From positions 1-44,006 of the forward strand of contig JANNCZ010000565.1 of NCBI GenBank assembly GCA_031387185.1: a stretch of DNA of 44,006 nucleotides. Reading direction: 5' to 3'. The DNA comes from Burkholderiales bacterium (GTDB taxonomy: Bacteria; Pseudomonadota; Gammaproteobacteria; Burkholderiales; JAEUOS01). The position numbers and the translations under genes are program-made. How positions within the stretch are numbered: the first letter of the stretch is position 1; each line of letters opens with the position of its first letter. Below are positions 5,770 to 32,574 of the stretch, piece by piece. Below the pieces are notes generated by a model. The model ran no database searches. It was given only the letters and a program-made list of their open reading frames with translations, and was not told the origin of the DNA.

Positions 5770-5860
5770 GGCGCGCAGCAGGTTGGTATGGCCGGGTTGA
5801 CATAGAATGATTGGCATAACGACGTGCGAAAGCTGCTCTCTCGCGAAGAGGGGGAGTCGA

Positions 5861-8800: not shown

Positions 8801-9628
8801 AAATTCACCGAGCGTGAAATCCTCAACCTGAACGAGGAGCTCGAACAGCGCGTCTCCGAACGCACCAGCGAACTGAGTGTGGCAAACCGCGAACTGGAGG
8901 CATTTTCATACACGGTTGCGCACGACTTGCGCGCTCCGCTGCGCGCGATCGACGGTTTTTCGCAATTGCTCAAGGCTGATTTGGGCGGGGCCCTCACCAC
9001 CGAGACGCAACGCGATCTTGATGCCATCAGCACCAGCGCGCGGCGCATGGCCGATCTCATCAACGGGCTGCTCGATTTCTCGCGCTTGGGCCGCAATGAA
9101 CTCAACCGGCGGCGCGTCAACATGCAGGCTTTGGCGGAAAGCATTAGTGCCGAAATGACGGGAGACCATCCGGTGCAGGTTCAAATCGGCCGGCTACCGG
9201 AAGTGCATGGCGATTCAATAATGTTGCGTCAGGTGTGGGCCAACCTCATCGGCAATGCGGTCAAATTCAGTGCCAAAAGAAGCGCACCGCGCGTCACCAT
9301 CGAATGTGTGGTCGAGGCAGGAGAGGCGCGTTTTGCCGTAGCTGACAATGGCGACGGCATCGACATGGCCTACGCGGACAAACTGTTTGGGGTATTTCAG
9401 CGCATGCACAGCGCCGAGGAGTTTGAGGGTACCGGCGTGGGCCTGGCAATCGTCAAGCGTATAGTGGAGCGTCACGGTGGCCGCGTCTGGGTGCAGTCGG
9501 CGCCCGGTGCCGGGGCGAGTTTTTTCTTCACCCTGCCCGTGTCAGGTGTGAACGCAGTGGATGCTGTGGCCGGCACCGGCACCGTCGCCAGCGCGGCGGC
9601 CGCTGCCACGATTGAAATGAAAGGCTGA
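5861..9628 (+). CDS. Cytoplasmic multi-PAS / double-GAF sensor histidine kinase
   Basis: The ATG at 5861 is preceded by GAGGGGGAG. There are several PAS-like modules (SDWYWESGTDGRF, SDYKWATDAEHRF, SDWEWAQDEHFLF, EGVLIHEFGIIEYANPAF) and two GAF-like segments. The HisKA H-box is FSYTVAHDLRAPLRAIDGF. HATPase_c motifs are NLIGNAVKF, DNGDGID and GTGVGLAIV. I saw no obvious TM segment. Confidence 0.9.
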   Translation: MAQGQEMEKKLAGSPRVPRDAMLADAIRALVDFAPEGVALVDQTSHQIVYANRAAAHMLRADAARLAGQSIIAAAVHPQPGGGAPEALLQEMAQEVMARRESVRRWRLRRIDGILIDAEVRVILLPGEAGMFRVSLIDLTAQTALEEAAVRSQAALRASEARFRHLTRISSDWYWESGTDGRFTSVEGGTDAQAAARAGLIGRLPWEVRRFEVVETGWDEVRACWSRRSAYRQVLRYLVASEPGEVPPVMEIAAEPLFDAEGAWTGYRGVARDITARVRAEAELKESERHFRRLTEIASDYKWATDAEHRFIELVADAGGLVRGDALGKRRWDIPHLRPLGGNWDAHRLTLDARQPFDDLTVEVLGTDGRRRFRRISGEPVFDPHLGFTGYRGVGIDVSNNQRQTLKRSGEARLFEALARGESIAALMEILCEVIEGVTERPSRAAVMQVVDGHLVPLAASHLPDSYTSAVDGIGIEALCGAAAALNRVVVCTDTETDERWRMLRLMARNAGIRACWSTPICSADGQVIGTLAVFMGEAADPGIGDLDATASAARIAALVIDRFRAQAALRASEERLRRLVSLSSDWEWAQDEHFLFTHVGEFQGEHGRPVSASVGRARWDNPWLRPIGFTWEEHRALLEAHQPFSHTLFEFTDPARQRFYWAIRGEPVFDTAGQFRGYRGVGSDISARYRNDALRLGERALFEGMAQGATLPALSTLLAQTLCGVLERDSAVIIKEHRHSRLQPIGTHGVRPGWSTLLEHTLTLDADPTTCGEAARTGGICVAADAASEPRYAGLRDQIIALGIGATWAVPVTGSDGVVMATIGVACPAAAAPSGQDIEFAKAVARLTEFVLTRFRSAQAVRESAERYRRLVEQSQEGVLIHEFGIIEYANPAFLRMAGAPRMEDLMGMHAVKLYAKESQARAQERLARLREAGGSLGFTEMTLQRLDGGLLEVEVAANGFELHGRRMVQSQFRDISARKFTEREILNLNEELEQRVSERTSELSVANRELEAFSYTVAHDLRAPLRAIDGFSQLLKADLGGALTTETQRDLDAISTSARRMADLINGLLDFSRLGRNELNRRRVNMQALAESISAEMTGDHPVQVQIGRLPEVHGDSIMLRQVWANLIGNAVKFSAKRSAPRVTIECVVEAGEARFAVADNGDGIDMAYADKLFGVFQRMHSAEEFEGTGVGLAIVKRIVERHGGRVWVQSAPGAGASFFFTLPVSGVNAVDAVAGTGTVASAAAAATIEMKG

Positions 9629-9629
9629 T

Positions 9630-10064
9630 ATGTGCCAGACGCCCACGATATTGCTGGTCGAAGACAACGCCAGTGATGCTGATCTGGTGATCCGTGCGCT
9701 CAAGCGCCATGGCGTGGCGGCGCGTGTCGATCGCGCCCATGATGGCGTCGAAGCCCTTGGCTATTTGAGCGCCGCAGCCGAGCAGGGGCCTGCGGCGCTG
9801 CCGCAGTTGGTGTTGCTCGATTGCAAACTGCCCAAGCTCACTGGCATCGAGGTGTTGGCGCGGGTGCGCGCTGATCCGCGCATGGTGAATCTGGTGGTGG
9901 TGATGCTGACGTCATCGCAGGAACCGAGTGACTTGGCTGCTGCCTATGCGGCCGGTGTCAACAGTTTTGTGGTCAAGCCGGTTGAGTTTGAGGCGTTTTT
10001 CGATGCCATGGGCCGCTTGGCCCACTACTGGCTGGTGCTCAACCAGCGGCCGCCAGTTGACTGA
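9630..10064 (+). CDS. Single-domain CheY/Rcp-like response regulator
   Basis: 144 aa, with the ATG 1 nt after the kinase stop. Receiver motifs are ILLVEDNASDADL, LVLLDCKLPKLTG (acceptor Asp), VVMLTSS and FVVKP. There is no output domain. Confidence 0.9.
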   Translation: MCQTPTILLVEDNASDADLVIRALKRHGVAARVDRAHDGVEALGYLSAAAEQGPAALPQLVLLDCKLPKLTGIEVLARVRADPRMVNLVVVMLTSSQEPSDLAAAYAAGVNSFVVKPVEFEAFFDAMGRLAHYWLVLNQRPPVD

Positions 10065-10653: not shown

Positions 10654-10995
10654 TCAATGGGCACGGCCAACCAGTTCGTTGACGCTGGTCAGAAGCTTAT
10701 GGGCCACCATCGCCGAATCAACCTGAAATTCGCCATTGCGGATCGCGTCCTTGATGCGTTCGACTTTGGCTGCGTCGAATGGCCGCACGTCCGGCACGGA
10801 GACCGTCACCGGGCCAGGAGCCGCTCTGGGAGCGGCTTGCAGGCCGGCTACTGTCGCGCCGGCCAGTGCGCCCGGCGTTGTTCGTGCTGCTTCACCCGTA
10901 GTTGCGCCGTGGTTTACGTCCTTGGCACCGCCCTTGGCGGGTGCGGGACGCAAAGCGTCAAGCCGGTTGGTGTCAGTCAGACCATTGATTTTCAT
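10654..10995 (-). CDS. flgM: Anti-sigma-28 factor FlgM
   Basis: The ATG at 10995 has an AGGAGA RBS. The N-terminus is MKINGL..., and the C-terminal KVERIKDAIRNGEFQVDSAMVAHKLL matches the FlgM sigma-28-binding region. It is about 113 aa with a low-complexity middle. Confidence 0.82.
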   Translation of the reverse strand: MKINGLTDTNRLDALRPAPAKGGAKDVNHGATTGEAARTTPGALAGATVAGLQAAPRAAPGPVTVSVPDVRPFDAAKVERIKDAIRNGEFQVDSAMVAHKLLTSVNELVGRAH

Positions 10996-11055
10996 GGTGG
11001 ATCTCCTGGGTGGCAAAGCCGCAGCCTTGCGTGGGCCGCAGATGGTTTGCCCTCT

Positions 11056-11082
11056 CTAACGGCAGTCCGTGCGCAATCTTGA
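11056..11082 (-). promoter_or_regulatory. Candidate sigma-28 (FliA) promoter upstream of flgM
   Basis: The minus strand reads TCAAG-N14-GCCGTTAG, compared with the remembered consensus TAAA/TCAAG-N13-15-GCCGATAA. It lies about 60 nt upstream of the flgM ATG in the flgA-flgM spacer. The -10 element matches 6 of 8 positions. Confidence 0.35.
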
Positions 11083-11165: not shown

Positions 11166-11888
11166 CTATTTCATATCGACCACGCGGCCAGCACGCGCAA
11201 TGCCTTGCACCACACGGCCAGAATTGGTCTGGACGCGCACCGGCTGGCCGTCAGCGGCGTTGGCGAGCGCACGGCCATCCGAGACGATGACGAATCCGGC
11301 GCCGTTGAACACCAGTTGTACGGTGTCGCCTGCGCCCACTGCGGGCGGCGCGCGGAAGGATTCCTGACGCAACACCTGGCCGTTGCCAATCATGTGTGCT
11401 GCCGTTTTGCCGTCTATCTGTGTGGCATGGGTAACCACCACGCCGCTCTGGCGCGTAAGGTCGACTTCCTCTTCGCGTACGTCGAGCGCGCCCGCAGTGT
11501 CCCCCGGTTGCAGTACGCGCGCCGCCACAAGGGCACGCGCAAACACCTTGACATCGATGGGCAGAAACACATTCCATCCAGCGGCGTCCAGGCACTTGAG
11601 ACCAATTGAGCCGCGCCCCCACAAGCGCGCGCCTTGGGGCACATAAGGCTCGACCCGTGCGCAGGGTGCCAGGCGCATGCGCTCGTCCAGCGCGCCAACG
11701 CTGACCTCGACCCGGCCCGGCAAGCCGGTAGTGGCCTGCTCCAGATAGAGCTTGATCGACGCGGCCGGGCCTGCGCTCTGCGCGGGTGCCGAGCGCGCTT
11801 TCAGTGGTGCGGCACACACAAACATGGCGGCAATCACCAGGCCTTGGGCAAACCAGAGCGGGACAGGGTTGCGTGGATTCATGGCCAT
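11166..11888 (-). CDS. flgA: Flagellar P-ring assembly chaperone FlgA
   Basis: It starts MAMNPRNPVPLWFAQGLVIAAMFVCAAPLKA (signal peptide) after GGAGA; the second ATG at 11882 has better spacing. The C-terminal SAF-type segment is GQVLRQESFRAPPAVGAGDTVQLVFNGAGFVIVSDGRALANAADGQPVRVQ. It is divergent from flgB. Confidence 0.85.
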   Translation of the reverse strand: MAMNPRNPVPLWFAQGLVIAAMFVCAAPLKARSAPAQSAGPAASIKLYLEQATTGLPGRVEVSVGALDERMRLAPCARVEPYVPQGARLWGRGSIGLKCLDAAGWNVFLPIDVKVFARALVAARVLQPGDTAGALDVREEEVDLTRQSGVVVTHATQIDGKTAAHMIGNGQVLRQESFRAPPAVGAGDTVQLVFNGAGFVIVSDGRALANAADGQPVRVQTNSGRVVQGIARAGRVVDMK

Positions 11889-11991
11889 TCTCCAGCGGGC
11901 AGGAAACGTTCTCCAAGAGTTCTCCACGATACGCTCCGTGATCGGATGAGAGTGTGCGATCAGGCAGGGAATTGCCGTGTTGTTTTGCAGA

Positions 11992-12006
11992 TGGCGCGAA
12001 GGCTGC
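11992..12006 (+). promoter_or_regulatory. Weak candidate sigma-54 promoter for flgB operon
   Basis: TGGCGC-GAAGG-CTGC has the GG/GC spacing of TGGCAC-N5-TTGC. It lies 140 nt upstream of the flgB ATG. This is a pattern match only. Confidence 0.25.
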
Positions 12007-12060
12007 GTTTGCTCCAATCATCCTGCGCTGAAGAAAGGGTCGCCAGGCTGGCAACACAGT

Positions 12061-12145: not shown

Positions 12146-12550
12146 ATGATCGGAATGCTGGACCAATCACTGCAGTTCAACGGTGCCGCGCTGCGCTTGC
12201 GCGCCGAGCGCCAGCAGGTGCTTGCGGCCAATATTGCCAACGCTGACACGCCCGGTTTCAAGGCTGCCGATTTCGATTTCGGCCGCGCGCTTGAAGATGC
12301 CGCGCGCGGCGGATCGGGACCTGCTGGCCGCGGCCTCGCAGCCAGCGCGCCTGGCCACATCGGCGGCAATGCGTCCTCCACGTCCGCACTGCTGGCATTC
12401 CGCACTCCTGCGCAGGGATCGATTGACGGGAACAGCGTCGAGATGGACTCTGAGCGTGCGCGTTTCGCCGATAACGCGGTGCGCTATGAAGCCTCGCTCA
12501 AGTTTCTTAACGGCCAGATCAAGACGATCTTGAGCGCGATTCAGGGTTGA
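12146..12550 (+). CDS. flgB: Flagellar proximal rod protein FlgB
   Basis: 134 aa. It has LRAERQQVLAANIANADTPGFKA (rod N-terminal motif) and a C-terminal SIDGNSVEMDSERARFADNAVRYEASL. Confidence 0.95.
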   Translation: MIGMLDQSLQFNGAALRLRAERQQVLAANIANADTPGFKAADFDFGRALEDAARGGSGPAGRGLAASAPGHIGGNASSTSALLAFRTPAQGSIDGNSVEMDSERARFADNAVRYEASLKFLNGQIKTILSAIQG

Positions 12551-21568: not shown

Positions 21569-22771
21569 ATGCGAATCAGCACCCAACAAATATTTGCGCA
21601 AGGCAGCGCCTCGATCTCGGCGCAATACAGCGATATGTCCCACACGCGCCAGCAAATCGCGACAGGCCGGCGCATCCTCACGCCGTCGGATGATCCGGTG
21701 GCGTCGTCCGCTGTGCTGCACGCCAGCGCGGCGATTGCCTTCAATCAGCGCCACGCTGACAATCAGACCGCCGCACTCGCCACGCTTAATCAGAGCGAGG
21801 TTTCACTCGGCGCATTCGGCGACGGCTTGCAGGAAGCGCGTCAGGCGTTGATTGCAGCCAATAGCGGCAGTCTGAATGACGCTGACCACCGCACCGTTGC
21901 CACCCAGCTTGACAACCTGCGCGGCCAATTGCTCGGCATTGCCAACAGCCGCGATGGCGCTGGTGCGTATCTGTTTGCCGGCTTCAACGAATCTGGTGCA
22001 CCGTTTGCATTGACTGCCACTGGCGCAAGCTACGCGGGCGATGACGGCGAGCGGCAGGTTGAAGTCGCACCGCAGCGCCAACTCGCCGTGTCGGTCAACG
22101 GTGCCAGCACTTTCATGCGTGTACCGGACGGCAATGGCGTGTTCTCCGTTAACGCGGCAGCGGGCAACACCGGTGACGGTATTGTTGATCCGGGCCGCGT
22201 GGTCAACCCCGCTGCACTCACCGGCCACCAGTACCGCATTGCATTCACGGCAGCCGCAACTTATGACGTGGTCGATGTGACCTCGGGCAGCACCGTGTCC
22301 TCCGGCAACGCCTACGCGAGCGGCAACGCCATCTCCGTCGCGGGTATGCAGATGGCCATCTCGGGCGCGCCGGCTGCGGGCGACAGCTTCACGCTCGATC
22401 CGAGCAAACACCAGAACGTGTTCGCCACGCTGACGCAGGCGATCAACGCCTTGCAGACGCCGACGTTGAACAGCGCGGGCCTCGCGCGTAGCACCAATCA
22501 AATCACCGGTGCGCTGCTCAATCTTGACCGCGCCCTCGACACCGCGCTCAGCGCGCGCACCAGCATCGGCGCGCGTCAGGCCGAGATTGCGCGCCTCCAG
22601 GACATCACCAGCGCCACCGGCATCGAGCATCAGCGGCGCTTATCGGAGCTGCAAGACCTTGACTATGCGGCAGCGGCGTCGGATGTCGCGCGCCAGCAAA
22701 CCATGATCGACGCCAACCAGCAAACGTTCGCAAAGATCGCCAAGCTCAGCCTGTTTGACTATTTGCGCTGA
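21569..22771 (+). CDS. flgL: Hook-filament junction protein 3 FlgL
   Basis: 400 aa. It has a flagellin-like N-terminus MRISTQQIFAQG...RQQIATGRRILTPSDDPVAS and a C-terminal helical region. It follows flgK. Confidence 0.88.
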   Translation: MRISTQQIFAQGSASISAQYSDMSHTRQQIATGRRILTPSDDPVASSAVLHASAAIAFNQRHADNQTAALATLNQSEVSLGAFGDGLQEARQALIAANSGSLNDADHRTVATQLDNLRGQLLGIANSRDGAGAYLFAGFNESGAPFALTATGASYAGDDGERQVEVAPQRQLAVSVNGASTFMRVPDGNGVFSVNAAAGNTGDGIVDPGRVVNPAALTGHQYRIAFTAAATYDVVDVTSGSTVSSGNAYASGNAISVAGMQMAISGAPAAGDSFTLDPSKHQNVFATLTQAINALQTPTLNSAGLARSTNQITGALLNLDRALDTALSARTSIGARQAEIARLQDITSATGIEHQRRLSELQDLDYAAAASDVARQQTMIDANQQTFAKIAKLSLFDYLR

Positions 22772-22784
22772 CGCTGTTTCAAGT

Positions 22785-24971
22785 TCAGGCCACTTGTGCG
22801 ATGCGCCCGGTCTGCATCAACGGAATCACACGCGCGCCTGCGGACTTGGGCAAGGCAATATTCCAGTGCTCCGGCAAGCGGCCTGCCGCAAGACTGACGA
22901 GCAGCTCAGTAAGTTGGGGCACTGGTACTGGCTTGCTGAAGTAATAACCCTGCATCAAATGGCAGCCGTGGCGTTGCAGCAGCAGCATTTGCTCGCGCGT
23001 CTCCACGCCCTCGGCCACCAGCTCCAGTTTGAGGGTGCGGCCCATCGCGATGATGGCCGCCGTGATGATCTCGTTGTCGTTGTCTTCATTCATGTCGGCG
23101 ACGAAAGACTTGTCGATCTTGAGCTGATGGATGTCGAAACGCTTGAGATAGGCGAACGACGAGTATCCTGTGCCGAAGTCATCAATTGACAAGTGCACGC
23201 CCAGTTTTTTCAACTGTTTGAGGCTGGCGATGGTCGAAGATACATCCTGCATCAGCATGGTCTCGGTGATTTCAAGTTCAAGCAGGTGCGCAGACAGACG
23301 CGCGTCGCTTAGGGTTGACTGAATCATTTCCACAAAGCCGGGCCGCTGGAAATGCGAGCCGGGGATGTTGACCGCCACGCGTACTGGTGGCAGGCCCTGT
23401 GCCAGCCACGCTGCGGCCTGGCGCGCTGCACAGGTGAGCGCCCATTCGCCCATTGCCGCGATGACACCGGTCTCTTCGGCAATCGGGATGAAGACGCCGG
23501 GTGGCACCAGCTTGCCGCCGCGATTCCAGCGCATGAGGGCTTCGGCGCCGACGATGCCCCCAGTCTGCGCATCGATCTGCGGCTGATAGTGCAGCACCAG
23601 TTCATTGCGCTCCTGCGCCTTGTGCAGATCCTTTTCCATTTCCCAGCGCTGGCGGTCGGCGACATTGAGTTCGGGCGTGTAGCTGCGCATGGCATTGCGG
23701 CCCTGTGCCTTGACCGAATACATCGCGGCGTCCGCGTTGCGCATCAGTGCTTCGGCGTCGCTGCCATCTTCCGGGTAGCGTGCGATGCCAATGCTGGCGC
23801 TGATGATGTTTTCGTGACCGTTGATGTTAAACGGCTTGCGCAGTGCTTCGAGCATGCGCTCGGCGATGCTCTGCGGCTGATGCGGCTCGTTGATGGCCGT
23901 CAGCAGAATGACAAATTCGTCACCGCCGATGCGTGCCACGATGTCGCGGCTGCCCTCGCGCCAGCGTACACACTGTGACAAGCGCTCGGCGACTTCACGC
24001 AGCAGCGCATCACCGGCGCCGTGGCCTTGGGTGTCGTTGACATTTTTGAAACGGTCGAGATCAACGAACAGAGCTGCGAGGCGGGTGCTTTTACGCGCTG
24101 CTGCGTCGATCTCGCCTGTCAGCGCCTCTTGAAACAAGCGGCGGTTCGGCAGGCCTGTGAGGCTGTCATAGTTGGCCAGCGACAAAATTTGTGCTTCGGC
24201 ACGTTTGCGCTGGGTGATGTCCTGTGTCGTGCCGGCAATGCTGACAGTCTTGCCGTTGGCATCGGACTCGGTCTCGGCTTCGATGTGCACGAAGAATTCT
24301 GTGCCTTGCGGGTTGAGTGCACGCACTTCAATGTCAAATTCGCCGGGGCCGGCCTTGAGGCGTTCCGCCGCACCATTGAACTGAGGCGCATCAGCCGGAT
24401 GAATGAACTCGAAAAATTGTTGCGACGACAGCGGCGCGCCGCTGTTACTGAGGCCGGCCATGGCAAAGCAGATGTCAGAGGCGGTGACGGTGTTGTCGCC
24501 AAGGTTCCACTCCCAACTGCCAAGGCGGGCAATGCGTTGTGCGCGCGCCAGCTTGGAGCGGCTCTGTTCGAGTTCGGCGCGCATGCGCGCTGCACGTAGC
24601 AGGTAGCGTGCGCGCTGTGCCAGCAGCGTCCACTGCGAGGACTTGACGAAGAAATCGGTGGCGCCGGCTTCATAGGCGCGCGCAATCGAGCCTTCATCGT
24701 CCAGGCCGGTGAGCATCAGTACCGGCACGTTGGCTCCCAGCGGCTGCTTGCGCAGGGCCACGCAGGCGTCGAAGCCGTTCATGCCCGGCATCAAGGCATC
24801 GAGCAGTACACAGTCGCAGTGATGGGCTGCAAACATGGTCAGGGCTTCGCACCCGCTGCCGGCCTGTAGCACCCGGAAGGCATGCTGTTCGAGTACTGTG
24901 GCGGTCAATAAACGGGCGACCGGATCGTCATCGACCAGAAGAATAGTGTCTTGTTGGGCAGTATGGTTCAT
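22785..24971 (-). CDS. REC-PAS-GGDEF-EAL c-di-GMP turnover protein
   Basis: 728 aa. The receiver is TILLVDDDPVA, CVLLDALMPGMNG, VLMLTG and FFVKS. A PAS-like middle follows. The GGDEF site is ARIGGDEFVILL. EAL motifs are GAEALMRW, DDFGTGYSS and KIDKSF. Both catalytic signatures look intact, and there is no RxxD I-site at the canonical position. Confidence 0.92.
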   Translation of the reverse strand: MNHTAQQDTILLVDDDPVARLLTATVLEQHAFRVLQAGSGCEALTMFAAHHCDCVLLDALMPGMNGFDACVALRKQPLGANVPVLMLTGLDDEGSIARAYEAGATDFFVKSSQWTLLAQRARYLLRAARMRAELEQSRSKLARAQRIARLGSWEWNLGDNTVTASDICFAMAGLSNSGAPLSSQQFFEFIHPADAPQFNGAAERLKAGPGEFDIEVRALNPQGTEFFVHIEAETESDANGKTVSIAGTTQDITQRKRAEAQILSLANYDSLTGLPNRRLFQEALTGEIDAAARKSTRLAALFVDLDRFKNVNDTQGHGAGDALLREVAERLSQCVRWREGSRDIVARIGGDEFVILLTAINEPHQPQSIAERMLEALRKPFNINGHENIISASIGIARYPEDGSDAEALMRNADAAMYSVKAQGRNAMRSYTPELNVADRQRWEMEKDLHKAQERNELVLHYQPQIDAQTGGIVGAEALMRWNRGGKLVPPGVFIPIAEETGVIAAMGEWALTCAARQAAAWLAQGLPPVRVAVNIPGSHFQRPGFVEMIQSTLSDARLSAHLLELEITETMLMQDVSSTIASLKQLKKLGVHLSIDDFGTGYSSFAYLKRFDIHQLKIDKSFVADMNEDNDNEIITAAIIAMGRTLKLELVAEGVETREQMLLLQRHGCHLMQGYYFSKPVPVPQLTELLVSLAAGRLPEHWNIALPKSAGARVIPLMQTGRIAQVA

Positions 24972-24982
24972 GATGCCTCCAG

Positions 24983-27247
24983 TTACAACGGGGACTGCGT
25001 GACACGGGAAGACAGGGCAACTATTTGCGCACTGGCCGGGCTGCCAGGCGGTATGGCGAGCGCCGTCACTGCATCCATCACGCGTGCGTATTGGTCTTCG
25101 GCTTCGGGCAGGCAGGCAAGGGCGGCAGTGGGCTGATGACCGTGGGCATGTGCTTCAATGCGGGCACACAGTGCGCTCATCTCCAGCGCACCGAGATTGG
25201 CGTGGCTGGTCTTGAGGGTGTGGGCGGCGTTGCGTGCGTCGTCCAGGTGCCCGCCTTCGAGTGCAGCGCGCAACTGTTCGAACAAGGCCGGGGTGCTGTC
25301 GAGGAAGGTGCGGGCGAGACGCGGGATCAGACCGCGCGTGCCATTGCGTTCAAGCGCCAGGAGCCGTTGCAAAGTGTGAGGGTCGAGCACTGTGGCGCCA
25401 GTCACGCGTCCGGGAGTCGCTGCGGCGAAGTCCGTTCGGGCGCTGACTGGCTCTCTCCTGGGGTCTCTCGCGGCGATGCTGGCCATCGCATTTGGTGCCG
25501 CTGCTTCACTTTGCTGCGCGCCATCACGGTGATCCCCATCCTGAGCAGTCACCGGCAGCCATTGCCGGAGCATTGCGTGCAGTGCGGCTTCGGCATAGGG
25601 CTTGGCAAGATAGCCGTCAAAGCCAGCAGCCAGACAGCGCTCACGGTCGCCCGCCATTGCATTCGCCGTGAGTGCAATCACCGGCACGTCACTGGGTACG
25701 GCGAGCACACCGGGGCCGCAGCTCGGGCTTGCACGGATCAGCCTGACCGCCTCAAAGCCATCCATTTCGGGCATCTGGCAATCCATCAGCACCAGATCGA
25801 CGGCTTGATCGGCCAACTGTGCGAGGGCCTGGCGGCCATTTTCTGCAATCGCCACACGGCAGGCCGTGCTGTCGAGCATCGCAATGGCAATTTCTCGATT
25901 GACCGGGTTGTCCTCTACCAGCAGGATGCTGCCGCGCAGTCTTGCCGCCGGCGGTAAGGCTGATGCAACTGCCCCCGCAGCCGCACCCGGCGCGGTCAGC
26001 GCGCTGGCGAGTGCCTTGTACAGCTCGCTGGCGCGTACCGGCTTTTCCAGCCACACCGATACACCGGCCGCGCGTGCACGCGCAATTTCGCCCGGCGCGG
26101 AAATCGAGGTCAGCATCAAGCGCGGCAGGGCAGCGAAGTGGTCATCGCGCTGCAGGGTTTCGGCCAGTTCAACACCGGACATGCCCGGCATCTTCATGTC
26201 GATCAAGGTGGCGGCAAATGGCTGGCCTGCGCATTGGGCGGCGCGCAGCATGTCGAGGGCTTGGTAGGCATCACTCGCGGCGGCGCAGCCCGCTCCCCAG
26301 CGGTGCAACTGGCCGACCATGATGCCGCGATTGGTTGCGTTGTCGTCCACGATCAGCACACGCTGGCCAGCGAGTGCGCCAGCGGCGGCGCTGCGTGGCG
26401 CCAGCAGAGCCGCATCGTGCGTCTGTGCGTCCGGATTGACCGCGGGCAGGGCAATCGCGAAACTGAAGGAGGAGCCGCATCCCGCAGTGCTGCGCATCTC
26501 GAGGTGCCCGCCCATCATGCCCAGCAGACGCTGGCAGATGATGAGCCCCAAACCGGCACCGCCCAAACGGCGCGATGCCGTGGTGTCACCCATCTCGAAG
26601 GCGTGGGTGAGATGCCGCTGCATCTCGGTGCTGATGCCGATGCCGCTGTCGGTCACACTGAAGCGCACCGGGCGCGGCGGTGCAACGGCTAGCAGGGTAC
26701 TGCCAGTGTTGGCGTCTGTGCTGCGGCTCGTGTTGGTGTCTGCGGCGCCTGCGGTGCTTCCGGCGTCATCGGCGTGGGCGTCTTCGCAGGTGACACGCAC
26801 ATTGATCTCGCCACTGGCAGTGAACTTGATGGCATTGCCGATCAGGTTGACCAGCACTTGCGACAGACGTGCGGCATCTGCCATGACCACTGCAGGTACG
26901 GCGGGATCGATCTGGCAAGTCAGCTCCAGCCGTTTTTGGTGGGCGCGTGGTGCCAGCAGATCGGCGGCTTCCTCCACCAGGGCGGCCAGTGCACAGGACT
27001 GTGCATGCAGTTCGAGCCGGCCGGCTTCAATCTTCGAGTAGTCCAGGATGTCGTTGATGATGGCCAGCAGCGCCTCACCGGAGTCATACACGGTTTGCGC
27101 ATAGCGGCGCTGCTGCGCGCTCAGCGCAGTATTGAGCAACAGCTCGGTCATGCCCAGCACGCCATTGAGCGGTGTGCGGATGTCGTGGCTCATGCTGGAG
27201 AGAAACTGCGACTTGGCGCAATTGGCCAACTCGTGTGTGGCTGTCAT
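24983..27247 (-). CDS. Input-less hybrid histidine kinase (HisKA-HATPase_c-REC-REC-Hpt)
   Basis: The ATG at 27247 has AAGGAG 6 nt upstream. The H-box FLSSMSHDIRTPLNGVLGMTELL begins at residue about 16. HATPase motifs are NLIGNAIKFT and GGAGLGLIICQRL. REC1 is LIVDDNATN, TLIDMKMPGMSG, LMLTS and LEKP. REC2 is LLVEDNPVN, LVLMDCQMPEMDG, IALTANA and LAKP. The C-terminal Hpt is AAHTLKTSHANLGA. Confidence 0.9.
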   Translation of the reverse strand: MTATHELANCAKSQFLSSMSHDIRTPLNGVLGMTELLLNTALSAQQRRYAQTVYDSGEALLAIINDILDYSKIEAGRLELHAQSCALAALVEEAADLLAPRAHQKRLELTCQIDPAVPAVVMADAARLSQVLVNLIGNAIKFTASGEINVRVTCEDAHADDAGSTAGAADTNTSRSTDANTGSTLLAVAPPRPVRFSVTDSGIGISTEMQRHLTHAFEMGDTTASRRLGGAGLGLIICQRLLGMMGGHLEMRSTAGCGSSFSFAIALPAVNPDAQTHDAALLAPRSAAAGALAGQRVLIVDDNATNRGIMVGQLHRWGAGCAAASDAYQALDMLRAAQCAGQPFAATLIDMKMPGMSGVELAETLQRDDHFAALPRLMLTSISAPGEIARARAAGVSVWLEKPVRASELYKALASALTAPGAAAGAVASALPPAARLRGSILLVEDNPVNREIAIAMLDSTACRVAIAENGRQALAQLADQAVDLVLMDCQMPEMDGFEAVRLIRASPSCGPGVLAVPSDVPVIALTANAMAGDRERCLAAGFDGYLAKPYAEAALHAMLRQWLPVTAQDGDHRDGAQQSEAAAPNAMASIAARDPRREPVSARTDFAAATPGRVTGATVLDPHTLQRLLALERNGTRGLIPRLARTFLDSTPALFEQLRAALEGGHLDDARNAAHTLKTSHANLGALEMSALCARIEAHAHGHQPTAALACLPEAEDQYARVMDAVTALAIPPGSPASAQIVALSSRVTQSPL

Positions 27248-27263
27248 GGTGTGCTCCTTTTCC

Positions 27264-27761
27264 TCAATGCAGTGCGCGTGAGTGCAGTATCGGTGCGTCG
27301 AACTGCAACTCGCCGGCATGGGCGTTGGCGCCGGCCGCAGTGCCCGCCGCTATGCCGCTGCGCGCGCGCAGAGTATTGAGCTGGCGGCGTGCGTAACGCA
27401 GCGCCAGCAGGTTGACCATGCGCGCTACCAGCTCGGGAAAGTCGACCGGCTGGGTGAGGAAATCAGTCGCACCAGCGCGCAGCGCATCACCGCGTACAAA
27501 CGCCGCCGCCGCTTCGTGCATCAGTACCACCGGCACTTCAGTGCTGGCCGGGTTGGCGCGATAGCGGCGGATGAATTCGAGTCCATCGGTGGCGCGCATC
27601 AGGTGCGCCACCAGTATCAGGTCAGGCTCATGATGCAGGCACCAGTCGAGCGCAGGGGCAGGGTGCGTGAAGGTCAGAACGGTGGCGAGATGGCATTGCC
27701 CGACCGCGTGTGAAAGCCAGGCCAATTCGGATTCGCTGTCGCTGACGATGAGAATTTCCAT
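27264..27761 (-). CDS. Stand-alone pseudo-receiver (REC fold lacking phospho-acceptor Asp, Thr and Lys)
   Basis: The ATG at 27761 has AAGGAA 7 nt upstream. The sequence is MEILIVSDSESE...PDLILVAHLMRATDGLEFIRRYR...VPVVLMHEAA...DFLTQPVDF. Anchored on the conserved DG and on CheY numbering, this gives D57->A, T87->H and K109->Q. It ends 16 nt before the hybrid kinase start. Confidence 0.75.
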   Translation of the reverse strand: MEILIVSDSESELAWLSHAVGQCHLATVLTFTHPAPALDWCLHHEPDLILVAHLMRATDGLEFIRRYRANPASTEVPVVLMHEAAAAFVRGDALRAGATDFLTQPVDFPELVARMVNLLALRYARRQLNTLRARSGIAAGTAAGANAHAGELQFDAPILHSRALH

Positions 27762-27913
27762 GGCGGTGTTCCTTGAGGCGAAGTGGAGCTCGCAGCCGTC
27801 CCGCCCGCCCAATTGCCGCCTGCACAATGGTATGGCCGGATGCTTGGACGAGGTGTCGAGTGCGAATCGGGAATGAAGGTGGACAGTGGGCTTTACGGCA
27901 GCTTTGACCAAAG

Positions 27914-27954
27914 CTTGAGAGCGGCGTGCCGTGCCGGTAACTCTTGAGAGCGGC
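27914..27954. repeat. 12-bp direct repeat CTTGAGAGCGGC x2 (29 bp start to start) in divergent promoter region
   Basis: The copies lie at 27914-27925 and 27943-27954, between the pseudo-receiver operon and the divergent cyclase gene. A second small direct repeat, GGCCATCCC x2, lies at about 28036-28053. Confidence 0.75.
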
Positions 27955-28075
27955 AATACGCGGATCACATCAGCCAATAGTGGTCTGTTCGCGCGAATGC
28001 AAACTGCCCCGCCACCGTAATCTGCGCAGGTTGACGGCCATCCCGGCCATCCCGTTTCCGCCGAGCGCCCCGCCT

Positions 28076-29830
28076 ATGTCCGCCGTTCTGAGCCGATCAG
28101 GAAGTCACAGCAACATCAACCCCGGCGAGGTCGCGCGTGATGTGATCCGTCAGCTTGCCACCCGTCGCCTAGCGCCCACACCCGACAACTACGCCAGTCT
28201 CTACGCCGAGATCTCTGGTGCGGAATCAACCCATCCGGCAGTGACGCTGCTGCGCAACCTCGCCCAGGAGTGGATGCACCAGCCCACCGGCGCAGCGCTC
28301 GCCCGTTCGTTGCACGCTGCAATCAACAAGCTGGCCTGGAAGGATGTGGAAACCGAGCTGGCGCGCCTCGTCAATGCCTTGCGGACGCCTGCCCAAACCT
28401 GGGCGGATCTGCTGCGTGGCCTGTTGCGCCAATGGGAAGCCCGCCACGTCAGCGTCAGCGCGACGCAAAAGCGCGATGCGCTTGAGCAGGCCTTAGGCGG
28501 TGCGGGCGGCGATGTTCATAAACTGCAGCAGCGTGTCAGCTTCCTGGTTAAAAGTTGGAGCGACCTGCCGCAGGTGTCAATGGAAACGGTTAACGCGGGC
28601 GCGCTGGAGCCGGTCAAGACCGATCTCGCAGCAGGTATTGCCTTGCGTGAACTGCTGGCGCAAACACTGGAACTGGCGGTGGTGGCACGCATGGGCTATA
28701 CGCCCGATCTCGCAGCGCACGCGCAGCGCCTCGCACAGGCCTGCCGGGAGGCGGCTACCGTCAAAGAGGTCAACCGCCTGACGCAAGACCTCAAACAATT
28801 CTGGATCCGCCTCGAATTGCGTGGCGAAACCGTTGATGAAATCGTCAGTGGCCTGCGCGGGCTCTTGCAGATACTGCTCGATAACGCCGCTGAATTGGCG
28901 GGGGACGATCCGTGGATGAAAGCGCAAATGGAGCGCGCCCAGACCTTGCTTGCCGATCCGGTTGACGCAGGCGCATTGCGTGAAGCGGAAAAAAGCTTTC
29001 GTGAAGTCGCGGTACGCCAGGGCACGATCCGGCACAGTCTTGACGAGGCCAAGATCGCTCTCAAGAGCATGGTCACCATGTTTATCGACCGCTTGGGTGC
29101 GATGACCGAGAAAACCGGCGACTATCAAAAGAAGGTCGGCCAATACGCGGTGCAGATCGAGGGTGCAGACGACATCGCGCAGTTGTCGAGCGTGCTGTCG
29201 GGGCTGTTGTCCGACACGCGCGGCGTGCAGGCGGACATGCAGCGCACGCGCGATGAACTGGAGCGCACGCGCCAGGAAGCGCAGCAGCGCGAAGAGCGTG
29301 TGCGCCATCTGGAGCATGAACTGGAAGTAACAGCCAATCTGGTGAAGGTGGACCCGCTCACCAATGTACTCAACCGGCGCGGCATGAATGACGCTTATGC
29401 CGCCGAGGAAGCGCGCTGCACGCGCAGCGGATCACCGATGTGTGTCGGTTTGATCGATATTGACAATTTTAAAAGTCTGAACGACCGCCTCGGCCACCAT
29501 GCAGGCGACGGTGCCCTGCAGCACTTGGCAACGATTATGCGCGAGACCGTGCGGCCGTCGGATGTGGTGGCGCGCTTTGGTGGTGAAGAGTTTGTCTTGC
29601 TGTTGCCTGAAACGCCCATTGACGAGGCCGAAAAAGTCATGTCGCGCGTGCAGCGCGAACTGACCAAACGTCTCTACCTGCACAACAACGAGCGTGTGCT
29701 CATTACCTTCAGCGCCGGGGTTGCGCTCGGCCGGCCGGGTGAAAACCGCGACGAACACATTGCGCGCGCCGATGCCGCGATGTACGAAGCCAAGGCGAAC
29801 GGCAAGAATCGCGTGTGCCGTGCATCGTGA
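28076..29830 (+). CDS. Diguanylate cyclase with about 400-aa uncharacterised helical N-terminal domain
   Basis: It starts with the ATG at 28076 (MSAVLSRSGS...). The C-terminal GGDEF domain has DPLTNVLNRRG, IDIDNFKSLND and the active site RFGGEEFVLLL, with RPSD (an RxxD I-site) five residues upstream. A coiled-coil-like stretch QRTRDELERTRQEAQQREERVRHLEHELE precedes it. I saw no TM segment. Confidence 0.88.
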   Translation: MSAVLSRSGSHSNINPGEVARDVIRQLATRRLAPTPDNYASLYAEISGAESTHPAVTLLRNLAQEWMHQPTGAALARSLHAAINKLAWKDVETELARLVNALRTPAQTWADLLRGLLRQWEARHVSVSATQKRDALEQALGGAGGDVHKLQQRVSFLVKSWSDLPQVSMETVNAGALEPVKTDLAAGIALRELLAQTLELAVVARMGYTPDLAAHAQRLAQACREAATVKEVNRLTQDLKQFWIRLELRGETVDEIVSGLRGLLQILLDNAAELAGDDPWMKAQMERAQTLLADPVDAGALREAEKSFREVAVRQGTIRHSLDEAKIALKSMVTMFIDRLGAMTEKTGDYQKKVGQYAVQIEGADDIAQLSSVLSGLLSDTRGVQADMQRTRDELERTRQEAQQREERVRHLEHELEVTANLVKVDPLTNVLNRRGMNDAYAAEEARCTRSGSPMCVGLIDIDNFKSLNDRLGHHAGDGALQHLATIMRETVRPSDVVARFGGEEFVLLLPETPIDEAEKVMSRVQRELTKRLYLHNNERVLITFSAGVALGRPGENRDEHIARADAAMYEAKANGKNRVCRAS

Positions 29831-29836
29831 CGGCGC

Positions 29837-30469
29837 TCACTCCACCAATCCACGCTTGATCGCGTAGTGGGTGATCTCGGAATTGTTGCGCAGGCCAGTC
29901 TTCTCCAGCAGGCGTGCGCGGTAGACGCTGACGGTCTTGGGACTGAGTGAGAGCGTTTCGGCAATCTGCGACAGTTGTTGGCCAGAGGCAATCAGTCGCA
30001 TGGTTTGAAATTCGCGGTCCGACAGCAATTCATGCGGCGCAAGGTCGGTGTCCTGCGCCAAATTGGTCGCCAGCATCTCCGCCACGCTGGGCGTGATGAA
30101 GCGGCGTCCACGCGCTACAGTCTGGATTGCTTCTACCAGTCTCTCGGGCGCACTGTCCTTGGTCAGATAGCCGGCCGCGCCAGCCTTGAGCGCGCGCAGG
30201 GCGTACTGGTCTTCCGGATACATCGACAGGATCAGCACGCGCATCTTAGGGTACGACTCGTGCACGATCTTGAGAATGTCGATGCCGTTCTTGCCGGGCA
30301 TGCCGATGTCGAGCAGCAGCACGTCGCACTCGCCCTTGCGCAACAAATGCATCAGTTCGCCGTAGTCGGCGGCCTCGCCGCACAGTTCGATGCCGGGCTG
30401 GTCACCGGCAATCAGGCGCATGCCTTTGCGTACCACGGCATGGTCATCGGCGATGATGACGCGGATCAT
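29837..30469 (-). CDS. NarL/FixJ-family response regulator (REC + LuxR-type HTH)
   Basis: 210 aa. Receiver motifs are MIRVIIADDHAVVRKG, VLLLDIGMPGKNG, ILSMY and YLTKD. The C-terminal HTH is LSDREFQTMRLIASGQQLSQIAETLSLSPKTVSVYRARLLEK. Its ATG overlaps the upstream kinase stop (ATGA). Confidence 0.92.
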   Translation of the reverse strand: MIRVIIADDHAVVRKGMRLIAGDQPGIELCGEAADYGELMHLLRKGECDVLLLDIGMPGKNGIDILKIVHESYPKMRVLILSMYPEDQYALRALKAGAAGYLTKDSAPERLVEAIQTVARGRRFITPSVAEMLATNLAQDTDLAPHELLSDREFQTMRLIASGQQLSQIAETLSLSPKTVSVYRARLLEKTGLRNNSEITHYAIKRGLVE

Positions 30470-32574
30470 GCATCCGCCCCGTAGGCGGTTTGACCAATGC
30501 GATCATCTGCGGCAGGCAGGCCATCGCGCGCTGCGCTCACGACTCCTGCGTCGCCGGCAGTGACCACAGTACCTGTCGTCCCCGCAGCCCCCACTGCGCG
30601 CGACAGCCCGGCATGCCGGCGCGGCACCGACACCATCAAGGTTGTGCCGCCGTGCTCGTGACCGGCAATGTCGAGCCAGCCGCCCAGTGCACGGGCGCGC
30701 TCCATCATGCCGCGCACACCAAATGAAGCCGGCTTGGCGAGGTCAGCTTCCGAAAAACCGCAGCCATTGTCACGAATCTCCAGGGAGACGTTGCTGCTGT
30801 TGGCAAACATTTCGACATCCACGCGTGAGGCCTGTGCGTGCTTGGCGATGTTGGTGAGTGACTCCTGCAACACGCGAAACAGCGCGGTCGATTGCAACAA
30901 ATCCATCGCCACCTCGTCCTGATTGGTCCTGAACGATACTTCAAGACCCATGCGCGTGCCGAAATCCTTGAGCTGCCAATCGAGCGCCGGGCCGATGCCG
31001 TAATCGAGGATGCCTGGGCGCAATGACGATATGATGCGGTTCGCGGACTGCACCGTGCCATCGATCAACGCGCTCATGTCAGTAAGCTTGGCGGCAGCAG
31101 CGGGATCATCTTCGAGGCGCTTTTTTAGCCAGGCAGCGTCGGCCTTGAGGCCGGCCAGAATGCTGCCAATGTCATCATGAATCTCCCGCGCAACGGCGCG
31201 GCGCTCGTCTTCGCGCACCGACTCCATGTGTGCGGTGAGACGGCGCAGCTCTTCACGTGATTGGGTAAGTTCCGCTTCGGCTTGTTTTTGCGCTGACAGG
31301 TCGGTGATGACGCCGTCAAAGAGGGGATCACCACTGGCGGTCGCTTGCACTGAAGCTGAAATCTGGATCCAGCGCTCCGCGCCATCGGGGCGCATGATGC
31401 GCCACACGCCTTGCAGTGCCTCGCGTGATGCGAGTGACGTGGCTACCGCATCGCGGATCTGGTCGCGCGAGACCAGGTCAAACAGGTTCATGAAATGCTG
31501 CGGCGAGGCAGTGAATTCTTCCGGCGCAATGCCAAACAAAGTGACCGCGCCTGGGCTCATGTAGGGCAAGCGTGCCTCACCACTTGCTTTGTCAAACACC
31601 ATGCGAAACAACACTCCCGGCAGATTGTCCGAGATTGCCGTGACCCGTGATTCGCTTTCACGTTGCGCGGCTTCGGCTTTCTTTTGACCGGTAACGTCCA
31701 CGGCAAAGAGCACAGCGCCTTCGTTGTCTGCCCGACGCAAATGCAGAGGCGCTGCCGAAAAAAGTAGATGGGCCTGCCGGCCGCTGGGAAATGTCCATTG
31801 AACGGGCCGCTGTGAGAAGGCTCCACCGGAACGCATCTCGCGCAGCAAATTCTCGAATTTGACGTTGCTGTCCTGCACGGCAAACGCTGGGCGCCTTCCC
31901 AGAAGGGCGGGCAATTGCTCGAACAGCGCGTTTGCGGCGGGATTGAACAGGGTGATCCTGCCCTCGCCATCGAGTGCCACGATCGCCACCGGCGCAGCCG
32001 CGACGAGGGTACGGAAATAATCTTCGGAAACCCGCAGGCTCTCAACCGCTACGCGGTGTTCGCGCCGCACCGCAGCGGCCTGCAGCGCCAGCGCGAGGGC
32101 GGCCGGCAGGCGCGACAGATTGTGTTTCATCACATAGTCGTCGGCGCCGTCGTGCATCAGTTGCACGGCCACGTCTTCGCCCACCGCGCCGGAGACCACA
32201 AGGAAAGGAATATCGCGTCCGCTGGCGCGCACCAGCCGCATCGCCGCCTGCGCATTGAAGCGCGGCAAGCGGTAGTCGGAAATCACCACATCCCACGGCG
32301 CGCCATCCGGGAGGCTGTCTGACGTCAAGTCGTCCCTGCTGCCGAGCGCCTTGCGCATGGCGGTTTCTTCTTCGACCCGAATTGAATCGGGACTGAGCGG
32401 AAACTTGGCTGCCTTGAGCGCGCGCAGCATCAACTCGTAGTCGAGCTCAGTGTCCTCGACAAACAGAATGCGCACTGGTGCGGCCGGATCGTAGCTAGGC
32501 AGCGGTCCGCGCGGTGAGGCGTGCAACAGCTGCGGCAGGGTAAATCGCTGATCGACGGGAGTGATGGCGTCCAT
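30466..32574 (-). CDS. REC-PAS-PAS-HisKA_3-HATPase_c sensor kinase
   Basis: 702 aa. The N-terminal receiver is ILFVEDTELD, VVISDYRLP, LVVSG and YVMKH. Two PAS-like segments follow. The HisKA_3 H-box is AREIHDDIGSILAGLK. HATPase motifs are LQESLTNIAKHA, IRDNGCGF and FGVRGMMERA. Confidence 0.9.
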   Translation of the reverse strand: MDAITPVDQRFTLPQLLHASPRGPLPSYDPAAPVRILFVEDTELDYELMLRALKAAKFPLSPDSIRVEEETAMRKALGSRDDLTSDSLPDGAPWDVVISDYRLPRFNAQAAMRLVRASGRDIPFLVVSGAVGEDVAVQLMHDGADDYVMKHNLSRLPAALALALQAAAVRREHRVAVESLRVSEDYFRTLVAAAPVAIVALDGEGRITLFNPAANALFEQLPALLGRRPAFAVQDSNVKFENLLREMRSGGAFSQRPVQWTFPSGRQAHLLFSAAPLHLRRADNEGAVLFAVDVTGQKKAEAAQRESESRVTAISDNLPGVLFRMVFDKASGEARLPYMSPGAVTLFGIAPEEFTASPQHFMNLFDLVSRDQIRDAVATSLASREALQGVWRIMRPDGAERWIQISASVQATASGDPLFDGVITDLSAQKQAEAELTQSREELRRLTAHMESVREDERRAVAREIHDDIGSILAGLKADAAWLKKRLEDDPAAAAKLTDMSALIDGTVQSANRIISSLRPGILDYGIGPALDWQLKDFGTRMGLEVSFRTNQDEVAMDLLQSTALFRVLQESLTNIAKHAQASRVDVEMFANSSNVSLEIRDNGCGFSEADLAKPASFGVRGMMERARALGGWLDIAGHEHGGTTLMVSVPRRHAGLSRAVGAAGTTGTVVTAGDAGVVSAARDGLPAADDRIGQTAYGADA

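Follow-up and report, generated by a model that had tools for sequence, protein, structure and literature searches.

A three-gene signalling cassette with a sigma-28-type promoter beside the flagellar genes of an uncultured Burkholderiales bacterium

We present a computational analysis of a three-gene signalling cassette carried on 44,006 nucleotides (nt) of Burkholderiales DNA (contig JANNCZ010000565.1 of GenBank assembly GCA_031387185.1), this whole stretch being referred to as the window. Read along the minus strand, the cassette encodes a stand-alone pseudo-receiver (PsR), a hybrid histidine kinase with no sensor and a response regulator with GGDEF and EAL domains (GE). A conserved promoter motif of the sigma-28 (FliA) type precedes the cassette, which in the best reading belongs to the late flagellar regulon and is no mere neighbour of the flagellar genes. 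Comparison with related loci suggests in addition that the kinase gene is one stage of a repeated reductive loss around which the pseudo-receiver and the response regulator are retained. The principal features are as follows.

27892..27918, minus strand: sigma-28 (FliA)-type promoter motif TCAAG-N14-GCCGTAAA, reading TCAAGCTTTGGTCAAAGCTGCCGTAAA, 130 nt upstream of the PsR start codon
27762..27891, minus strand: predicted operon leader (5' untranslated region), placed from the alignment and from promoter-to-ATG distances
27264..27761, minus strand: PsR, an aspartate-less stand-alone pseudo-receiver of 165 amino acids (aa) with a Pfam Response_reg domain
24983..27247, minus strand: sensor-less unorthodox hybrid histidine kinase of 754 aa, HisKA-HATPase-REC1-REC2-Hpt by Pfam
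22785..24971, minus strand: GE, a REC-PAS-GGDEF-EAL response regulator of 728 aa by Pfam

Promoter and operon structure

Alignment of the regions upstream of PsR from nine lineages revealed a single conserved block, TAAAG/TCAAG-N14-GCCG(A/T)(A/T)AA, the rest of the sequence being divergent. At locus L094 (related loci are given L numbers) the block is a perfect FliA consensus, TAAAGTTT-N11-GCCGATAA, and reads CTAAAGTTTGGCGGCCGCCAGCCGATAAC. Wherever the sequence upstream of a short PsR gene is covered, the motif stands before the gene, recognised by regular expression in most loci and by alignment in L001 and L088. Its distance to the ATG is 34-45 nt in most lineages and 92-132 nt in the subclade of the window, where a leader insertion of about 95 nt is seen.

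Three matches to the sigma-28 motif occur in the window against 0.18 expected. A motif of this type at 11056-11082 (minus strand) stands 40 nt before flgM (10654-11016) and another at 12507-12533 (minus strand) lies in the region between flgA (11166-12017) and flgB (12547 onwards); flgN and flgA were also identified in the flagellar region. Both were used as internal controls, the copy before flgM being a positive one because flgM is a classic sigma-28 target. Neither a sigma-70 nor a sigma-54 promoter was convincingly matched upstream of PsR. In Rfam searches of the 130-nt leader and the cassette, the leader matched no family and the only hit, isrN within the coding sequence of GE, fell below threshold; a riboswitch or other known RNA in either was set aside accordingly.

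The three genes are tightly packed, with intergenic gaps of 16 nt between PsR and kinase and 11 nt between kinase and GE. Shine-Dalgarno-like purine-rich sequences (GGAAAAGGAG and GGAGG) occupy the two gaps and AGGAA stands ahead of PsR, in agreement with an earlier note on this DNA, made from the letters alone, which had given each gene its own ribosome-binding site (RBS). An alternative kinase start ATG at 27319 would overlap PsR, and the RBS favours 27247. No promoter-like or terminator-like site inside the cassette rises above chance, and a splitting of the operon by internal signals was rejected on that ground. The tight spacing, the RBSs and the single conserved promoter together make one operon likely, as the earlier note had proposed, and we infer that the three genes are probably co-transcribed and depend on sigma-28 in vivo. 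The promoter and operon reading as a whole is held with considerable confidence.

Purifying selection acts on PsR, kinase and GE alike, as measured by the ratio of nonsynonymous to synonymous substitution rates (dN/dS). All three proteins fall under every NCBIfam equivalog cut-off, and no named orthologue can be assigned to any of them.

Two context genes flank the cassette.

21569..22771, plus strand: flgL, convergent neighbour
28073..29830, plus strand: divergent diguanylate cyclase gene, encoding a region of about 420 aa at the N-terminus with no Pfam match, followed by GGDEF

The stop codon of GE and the end of the convergent flgL are 13 nt apart. To that extent the earlier description of the cassette as abutting the flagellar operon is accurate, but it understates a link that extends to a conserved sigma-28 promoter. 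The flgL adjacency is retained in L001, L008 and L094 and is absent in L092 and L093.

Distribution of the cassette and erosion of its middle gene

The aspartate-less PsR family is small. A set of 5.8 billion proteins yielded about 15 clusters at 90% identity, and at 50% identity there are two representatives among 1.84 billion proteins together with a handful of related short pseudo-receivers. Five GTDB species representatives carry it, all of them uncultured Burkholderiales. The loci share a common frame of divergent GGDEF cyclase, PsR and then GE, and many continue into flgL-flgK-flgJ. The order PsR-kinase-GE recurs in L005, L092, L093, L094 and L132, the first of these being a metagenome-assembled genome (MAG), "Burkholderiales bacterium VAR_79_metabat_185", whose contig is nearly identical to the window. 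A synteny search for the triad, which the earlier note had proposed, finds it in several lineages; its conservation as a unit is confined to a small clade of uncultured Burkholderiales, and in sister lineages the middle gene is reduced or lost. Kinase orthologues found in the same position range from 727 to 1470 aa, and the states of the middle gene are as follows.

L132: dCache-HAMP-PAS×3-HisKA-HATPase-REC-REC-Hpt, 1470 aa
L094: kinase with a transmembrane region and PAS×2, 1061 aa
L093, L091, L088: kinase with one PAS, 881 aa in L093; gene start only for L091 and L088
Window, L005, L092: sensor-less kinase, complete copies of 754-781 aa (window 754, L092 781)
L085, L086: sensor-less kinase, gene start only
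L008, L095, L096: REC-Hpt only, 315 aa
L001-L004, L006: no gene; gap of 323 nt
L009: no gene; gap of about 115 nt

The 323-nt spacer (7902-8224 in L001, likewise in L002-L004 and L006) is a fused relic of the lost kinase. Its PAS N-terminus, still an open reading frame of 59 codons, matches the L088 kinase at E = 5e-13, and its Hpt C-terminus, which lies out of frame after the PAS part, matches residues 690-734 of the window kinase at E = 4e-4. The REC-Hpt gene (10472-11419 in L008 and approximately 6570-7370 in L095 and L096) encodes about 315 aa with 39-40% identity to REC2-Hpt of the kinase, and its product could shuttle phosphoryl groups, as a free protein, on behalf of a kinase whose gene lies elsewhere.

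In the midpoint-rooted tree of GE, full-sensor forms lie outside, the one-PAS form groups as sister to the sensor-less clade, and separate branches carry the relic, REC-Hpt and empty states. As the outgroups carry large sensor kinases and lie outside in this tree, the phylogeny indicates that the sensor-less state arose by truncation of a longer kinase, and it implies no fewer than three to four independent reductions or losses of this gene. The earlier description of the kinase as sensor-less is borne out by the absence of any input domain, yet this state was reached by loss, as one step in a reduction seen repeatedly, and is not a matter of design. The window kinase itself is, by its pattern of substitution, no pseudogene, since its dN/dS is 0.155 over a synonymous divergence (dS) of 1.36 between the window and L092, both sensor-less.

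PsR and GE are kept in every lineage, those with no kinase included. The dN/dS of GE is 0.06-0.13 within the clade, and that of PsR is 0.12-0.24, with similar constraint whether or not a kinase is its neighbour. Where the kinase is absent, GE still keeps D58, T88, K110 and both catalytic motifs, and the cassette is not self-contained.

These observations bear directly on the model of the earlier note, in which PsR senses or relays an input to a purpose-built sensor-less kinase within a self-contained motile/sessile toggle that flips GE. Its attractions are real: the PsR gene directly precedes that of the kinase, their spacing being coupled, an input domain is missing from the kinase, purifying selection acts on PsR, and stand-alone or fused pseudo-receivers do regulate kinases, ShkA and CikA being examples (PMC12632262). 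However, PsR is found beside complete dCache/HAMP/PAS sensors (L132, L094) and also where the kinase is absent (L001-L004, L006, L009), its constraint differs little between the two situations, and the receiver of GE stays canonical when no kinase is encoded. Because PsR occurs alongside complete sensors as well as in loci devoid of a kinase, it is no stand-in for a lost sensor, and we regard the input model as unlikely. PsR is better read as an accessory than as the source of the signal.

Domains and residues of the kinase and of GE

Two domains of the kinase mark the ends of its putative relay.

27020..27217, minus strand: HisKA (DHp) domain, starting at residue 11, with phospho-acceptor H21
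25115..25318, minus strand: Hpt domain, with H676 in the motif AHTLKTSHANLGA

Pfam recognises HisKA, HATPase_c, two Response_reg domains and Hpt in the kinase, and with HisKA beginning at residue 11 no sensor or transmembrane region was found. The HisKA/HATPase motifs are present (H21 in SHDIRTP; NLIGNAIKF, DSGIG and GGAGLGL as N, G1 and G2 boxes). Both receivers are canonical, REC1 with D350, T380 and K402 and REC2 with D489, T527 and K549, which corrects the single receiver assumed earlier. Partial NCBIfam matches to TorS and BarA stay below cut-off, making the kinase an equivalog of neither. Measured against unorthodox hybrid kinases of the TorS/BarA/ArcB kind, it possesses the core, the receiver and the Hpt domain and lacks the N-terminal input module. 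Residues of about 155-192 (26660-26790, minus strand) form an Ala/Thr/Asp-rich low-complexity insertion between the N box and G1 box of HATPase, whose length and sequence vary among orthologues.

GE contains REC, PAS_3, GGDEF and EAL by Pfam. Its receiver residues D14/D15, D58, T88 and K110 are conserved in all eight aligned lineages, and the motifs GGDEF at 349, EAL at 477, DDFGTGYSS at 597, KIDKSF, EGVET and QGYYFSKP are present and conserved; an RxxD I-site was not found in GE. GGDEF and EAL both seem capable of catalysis. In the PDB the closest relatives of GE are the GGDEF-EAL modules of PA0575, MorA, DosP and RbdA, and GE shows the receiver and catalytic motifs of receiver-controlled GGDEF-EAL enzymes of the PdeR/RavR/Lpl0329 kind. 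The combined domain inventory allows a His-Asp-His-Asp chain from the kinase onto the canonical receiver of GE, and the relay proposed earlier stands in this respect.

A kinase with no input domain could alternatively be gated by its own product pool in the manner of ShkA, where cyclic di-GMP (c-di-GMP) binds REC1 and releases autoinhibition; the kinase would then sense the pool set by GE and the divergent cyclase. The core architecture does match (PDB 6qrj, ShkA, at E 2e-68 over CA-REC1-REC2), and the kinase offers no other input domain. Residue by residue, however, only two of the six c-di-GMP contacts of ShkA (R324, Y338, I340, R344, S347 and Q351, taken from 10.1101/675454) are kept: R344 is retained and Y338 is W, with R324 replaced by P, I340 by E, S347 by E and Q351 by A. 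The REC1-REC2 linker has no DDR motif, and REC1 of the window keeps an acceptor, D350, which REC1 of ShkA lacks. On this comparison with 6qrj, ShkA-like gating was rejected and is extremely improbable here.

The pseudo-receiver: residues, fold and possible origin

PsR matches Pfam PF00072 (Response_reg) with 52.1 bits against a cut-off of 30.2. Four of its five conserved receiver residues are replaced, the DD pair reading S7-D8, the acceptor Asp A52, the Thr H82 and the Lys Q104, and its status as a pseudo-receiver, assigned in the earlier note, is thereby upheld. The subclass of aspartate-less receivers is defined by a missing acceptor Asp, and PsR falls within both the pseudo-receiver and the aspartate-less definitions (PMC12632262). 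PsR cannot be phosphorylated. In the outgroup PsRs (L094, L009, L097-L132) the acceptor Asp is kept and the first acidic residue, Thr and Lys are missing; loss of the acceptor is an additional step in the clade of the window.

The AlphaFold2 model of PsR has a mean predicted local distance difference test (pLDDT) score of 84, with values of at least 90 up to residue 130, and shows the (beta-alpha)5 fold of five strand-helix units. Alpha-5 is modelled as over-long, running to about residue 145, and is followed by a tail, predicted as disordered, that ends in a conserved ...ALH. In both structure and sequence the best PDB match is PleD D1, the first receiver of that protein.

PsR has no HD or HD_5 domain and ends after the extended alpha-5 helix. 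Its relatives of 343-361 aa carry HHEKxDGxGYP, Pfam HD_5 and the canonical DDDYTK receiver residues. In blastp, PsR scores 98-103 bits to REC-HD-GYP receivers against at most 34 bits to the other receivers in the window (GE, REC1 and REC2 of the kinase, the NarL-type regulator and the receiver at 9630), and an origin as a copy of a neighbouring receiver was discarded on these scores. The REC-HD-GYP type makes up 71 of the 75 further genome loci and 58 of the 80 metagenome loci retrieved, a retrieval by peptide patterns and therefore biased. In an unbiased profile search of 1.8 billion proteins, which tests the point more fairly, REC-HD/HD_5 accounted for seven of the ten next-best single-receiver matches checked, the remainder being REC-HisKA, REC-cyclase and REC-only. 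By these searches REC-HD/HD_5 is the dominant architecture among the single-receiver neighbours of PsR. It is not the exclusive one, as multi-receiver proteins score higher in sum and a few other architectures also occur. The earlier statement that the gene content is not Rpf-like has to be revised, since PsR is closest to RpfG-type REC-HD-GYP receivers, which are usually found beside hybrid kinases.

The outgroup locus L057 (Burkholderiaceae MAG FW300_bin.58) gives an independent argument, from synteny, on the origin of PsR. In the slot between cyclase and flgL it carries a sigma-28 motif followed by a complete REC-HD-GYP gene, with flanks homologous to those of the window (divergent cyclase 46% identity, flgL 43%) and with no GE. 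A HisKA-HATPase-REC(-REC)-Hpt kinase directly follows the REC-HD-GYP gene in about 21 loci and is one gene away in about 30 more, and the PsR-kinase pair may have descended from an RpfG/RpfC-like pair. PsR looks like what is left of a REC-HD-GYP phosphodiesterase that once occupied the same promoter slot, the receiver having been retained and its long modelled alpha-5 resembling a receiver-to-output linker left after truncation. Extended further, this suggests an output swap in a fixed sigma-28 slot: a FliA-driven REC-HD-GYP protein would have lost its catalytic domain and four of five receiver residues, and the receiver would have been kept as a phosphorylation-independent subunit (an Hpt decoy, or a heterodimer partner of the receiver or EAL domain of GE) for GE, which took over the slot. 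We offer this scenario tentatively and with low confidence.

No neighbour of the PsR gene is more constant than the divergent cyclase, which also adjoins the REC-HD-GYP gene of L057. It could be supposed that PsR works mainly with this cyclase, for example as a regulatory subunit, considering that the pairing of cyclase and receiver genes is the most constant feature of all (every PsR locus with upstream sequence, and L057 even with no GE). Divergent adjacency is nevertheless weak functional evidence, the partner in L057 is a complete REC-HD-GYP enzyme with an output of its own, and the cyclase has no recognisable receiver-docking domain; we consider such a partnership very unlikely, and look to GE or the kinase as the partner of PsR in what follows.

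Proposed mechanism and its weighing

In the proposed chain, a FliA-driven operon would couple completion of the flagellum to c-di-GMP turnover. After the hook-basal body is complete, FliA would drive PsR-kinase-GE from TCAAG-N14-GCCGTAAA with read-through of the three genes. The kinase, having lost its dCache/HAMP/PAS input, would autophosphorylate on H21, probably constitutively by analogy with truncated kinases, and the phosphoryl group could pass from H21 to D350 or D489, on to H676 of the Hpt domain and finally to D58 of GE. Phosphorylated GE would shift its GGDEF/EAL balance, likely towards net hydrolysis, keeping c-di-GMP low in flagellated cells as do PdeH, BifA and PdeR. PsR would act independently of phosphorylation, as an accessory and no sensor, its conserved alpha4-beta5-alpha5 face, GATDFLTQP...NLLALR, making contact with GE or with the Hpt/DHp of the kinase; candidate modes are a decoy for Hpt or DHp and a partner of GE. 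The phosphotransfer from kinase to GE, the direction of the switch and the partner of PsR are steps that we infer from domain content and analogy. To the whole chain we assign an even chance of being right, and to the switch direction and the partner of PsR a lower one.

Several observations weigh against this reading. The window promoter departs from the enteric sigma-28 consensus at three positions and is 130 nt away from the ATG. The genome and metagenome loci were retrieved by peptide patterns biased toward the receiver subfamily of PsR, and the window kinase is only 33-42% identical to the kinases beside REC-HD-GYP genes, no better than to generic hybrid kinases, a level at which orthology with them is unsupported. 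With both GE domains seemingly competent, the direction of the GGDEF/EAL switch is not readable from its sequence, and the source organism is an uncultured MAG.

The remaining points concern the kinase. Because the receiver of GE is canonical in kinase-less lineages, other phosphodonors for GE must exist there, and the adjacent kinase may be redundant. In the comparison with L005 it also has the highest dN/dS (0.40, against 0.09 for GE), alongside the repeated losses in sisters. The kinase might accordingly be seen as a decaying passenger, intact but redundant, with PsR and GE doing the work under sigma-28 and GE phosphorylated by another kinase or by acetyl phosphate; the three to four or more independent reductions or losses in sisters that always keep PsR and GE, the high ratio against L005 and the conserved GE receiver in kinase-less lineages all suit such a reading. 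It is countered by the dN/dS of 0.155 across the dS of 1.36 to L092, by the integrity of every catalytic and phosphotransfer residue, and by the retained RBS and tight coupling. We judge a passenger kinase doubtful, and prefer the chain in which the truncated kinase still phosphorylates GE.

Other signalling genes and divergence around the locus

Further signalling genes lie around the cassette. At 5807-10064 (plus strand), beside flgN, lies a signalling pair made up of a PAS-GAF-PAS-HisKA-HATPase kinase of 1273 aa and, after it, a canonical receiver that stands alone (9630-10064). At 29837-32574 (minus strand) the genes of a REC-PAS-PAS-HisKA_3 kinase and of a NarL/GerE-type regulator share 4 nt; this pair is kept next to the cyclase in most PsR lineages, L094 having a CHASE-PAS kinase instead. 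Divergence between the window and its species-level relative L005 is mosaic across 21569-32574. PsR and the cyclase have a dS of about 0 and the NarL-type regulator and its kinase one of about 0.03, while the hybrid kinase reaches 0.07, GE 0.10 and flgL 0.21, a pattern suggestive of recombination with a boundary at about 27250, close to where PsR and the kinase meet.

Significance

If the proposed chain is correct, a betaproteobacterial lineage places c-di-GMP degradation in the last flagellar tier, like enteric pdeH, but through a phosphorelay. It would also mean that signalling operons are remodelled by domain loss, the sensor going first and then the kinase, with the enzyme and the "dead" receiver staying behind. 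The working of stand-alone pseudo-receivers has been termed a mystery in a 2025 review of pseudo-receivers, and a stand-alone aspartate-less receiver under selection both with and without a kinase would be a tractable case for their mode of action; should the output-swap scenario also hold, the series of kinase states would amount to a natural experiment on stand-alone pseudo-receiver function. The locus is in any event a modestly interesting evolutionary case, confined to a small uncultured clade.

Comparison with known systems

The cassette is no new class of signalling system. Like it, RavA/RavS-RavR of Xanthomonas campestris and PdeK-PdeR with TriP of X. oryzae combine a clustered kinase and a GGDEF/EAL response regulator, and theirs control c-di-GMP, flagella and swimming (PMC6707612, PMC6637768). 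RavA, like the window kinase, has no recognisable input domain, and this input-less kinase phosphorylates RavR; RavS stripped of its transmembrane and PAS domains shows stronger autokinase activity (PMC6707612). The receiver of TriP binds the EAL domain of PdeR and boosts its phosphodiesterase activity, a precedent for a stand-alone receiver that modulates a GGDEF-EAL protein (PMC6637768), and pseudo-receiver heterodimers are a precedent for binding by PsR (PMC12632262). The differences are equally clear. The Xanthomonas kinases (RavA/RavS, PdeK) are not unorthodox REC-REC-Hpt hybrids, RavR has a C-terminal receiver and a degenerate GGDEF unlike GE, and TriP differs from PsR in being a transcription-type regulator that can be phosphorylated and is encoded elsewhere. 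The Rav and Pde systems have no reported sigma-28 promoter, and no orthology of their genes to those of the window is shown.

In its promoter the cassette resembles the FliA-controlled phosphodiesterase genes pdeH (PMC6119863) and bifA (PMC5026340). PdeH (YhjH) of E. coli and BifA of Pseudomonas putida are, as proposed here for GE, enzymes under the flagellar sigma factor that keep c-di-GMP low. Unlike GE, PdeH is a stand-alone EAL protein and BifA a GGDEF-EAL protein with no receiver, neither gene is preceded by a kinase or a pseudo-receiver, and FliA dependence in the window is read from the conserved motif.

With RpfC/RpfG-type pairs the cassette shares a receiver subfamily, PsR belonging to that of the REC-HD-GYP proteins, whose genes often adjoin Hpt hybrid kinases. 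It departs from them in having no HD-GYP domain, so that PsR is not a response regulator with an HD-GYP output in the Rpf sense, in the replacement of four of five receiver residues and in an EAL/GGDEF protein as output; genes for synthesis of diffusible signal factor (DSF) were not seen near the cassette. ShkA of Caulobacter, among the best PDB matches of the kinase, is likewise cytosolic, with no N-terminal sensor and a DHp-CA-REC-REC core, but its REC1 is a pseudo-receiver with c-di-GMP contacts and its linker a DDR one, neither of which is conserved here, and a fused Hpt is found only in the window kinase.

VieSAB of Vibrio cholerae likewise has three genes, one for a hybrid sensor kinase, one for a phosphodiesterase of the receiver-EAL type and one for an auxiliary receiver protein by which the kinase is modulated. 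It differs in the periplasmic sensor domains of VieS, in VieA having no PAS or GGDEF, in VieB being a phosphorylatable receiver with an extra domain, and in gene order and regulation. Together with Lpl0330/Lpl0329 and RocS1/RocR, it is a further example of kinase-controlled GGDEF-EAL-type regulators that govern motility.

The earlier suggestion that the cassette is undescribed is consequently too strong, comparable systems of a kinase and a GGDEF-EAL receiver protein being known in RavA-RavR-RavS and PdeK-PdeR (PMC6707612, PMC6637768). Kinase-controlled GGDEF-EAL regulators, FliA-controlled phosphodiesterases and pseudo-receivers are each established; what is particular to this locus is their combination in a sigma-28 slot, with an apparently domesticated relic of an HD-GYP receiver and a natural series of kinase truncations.

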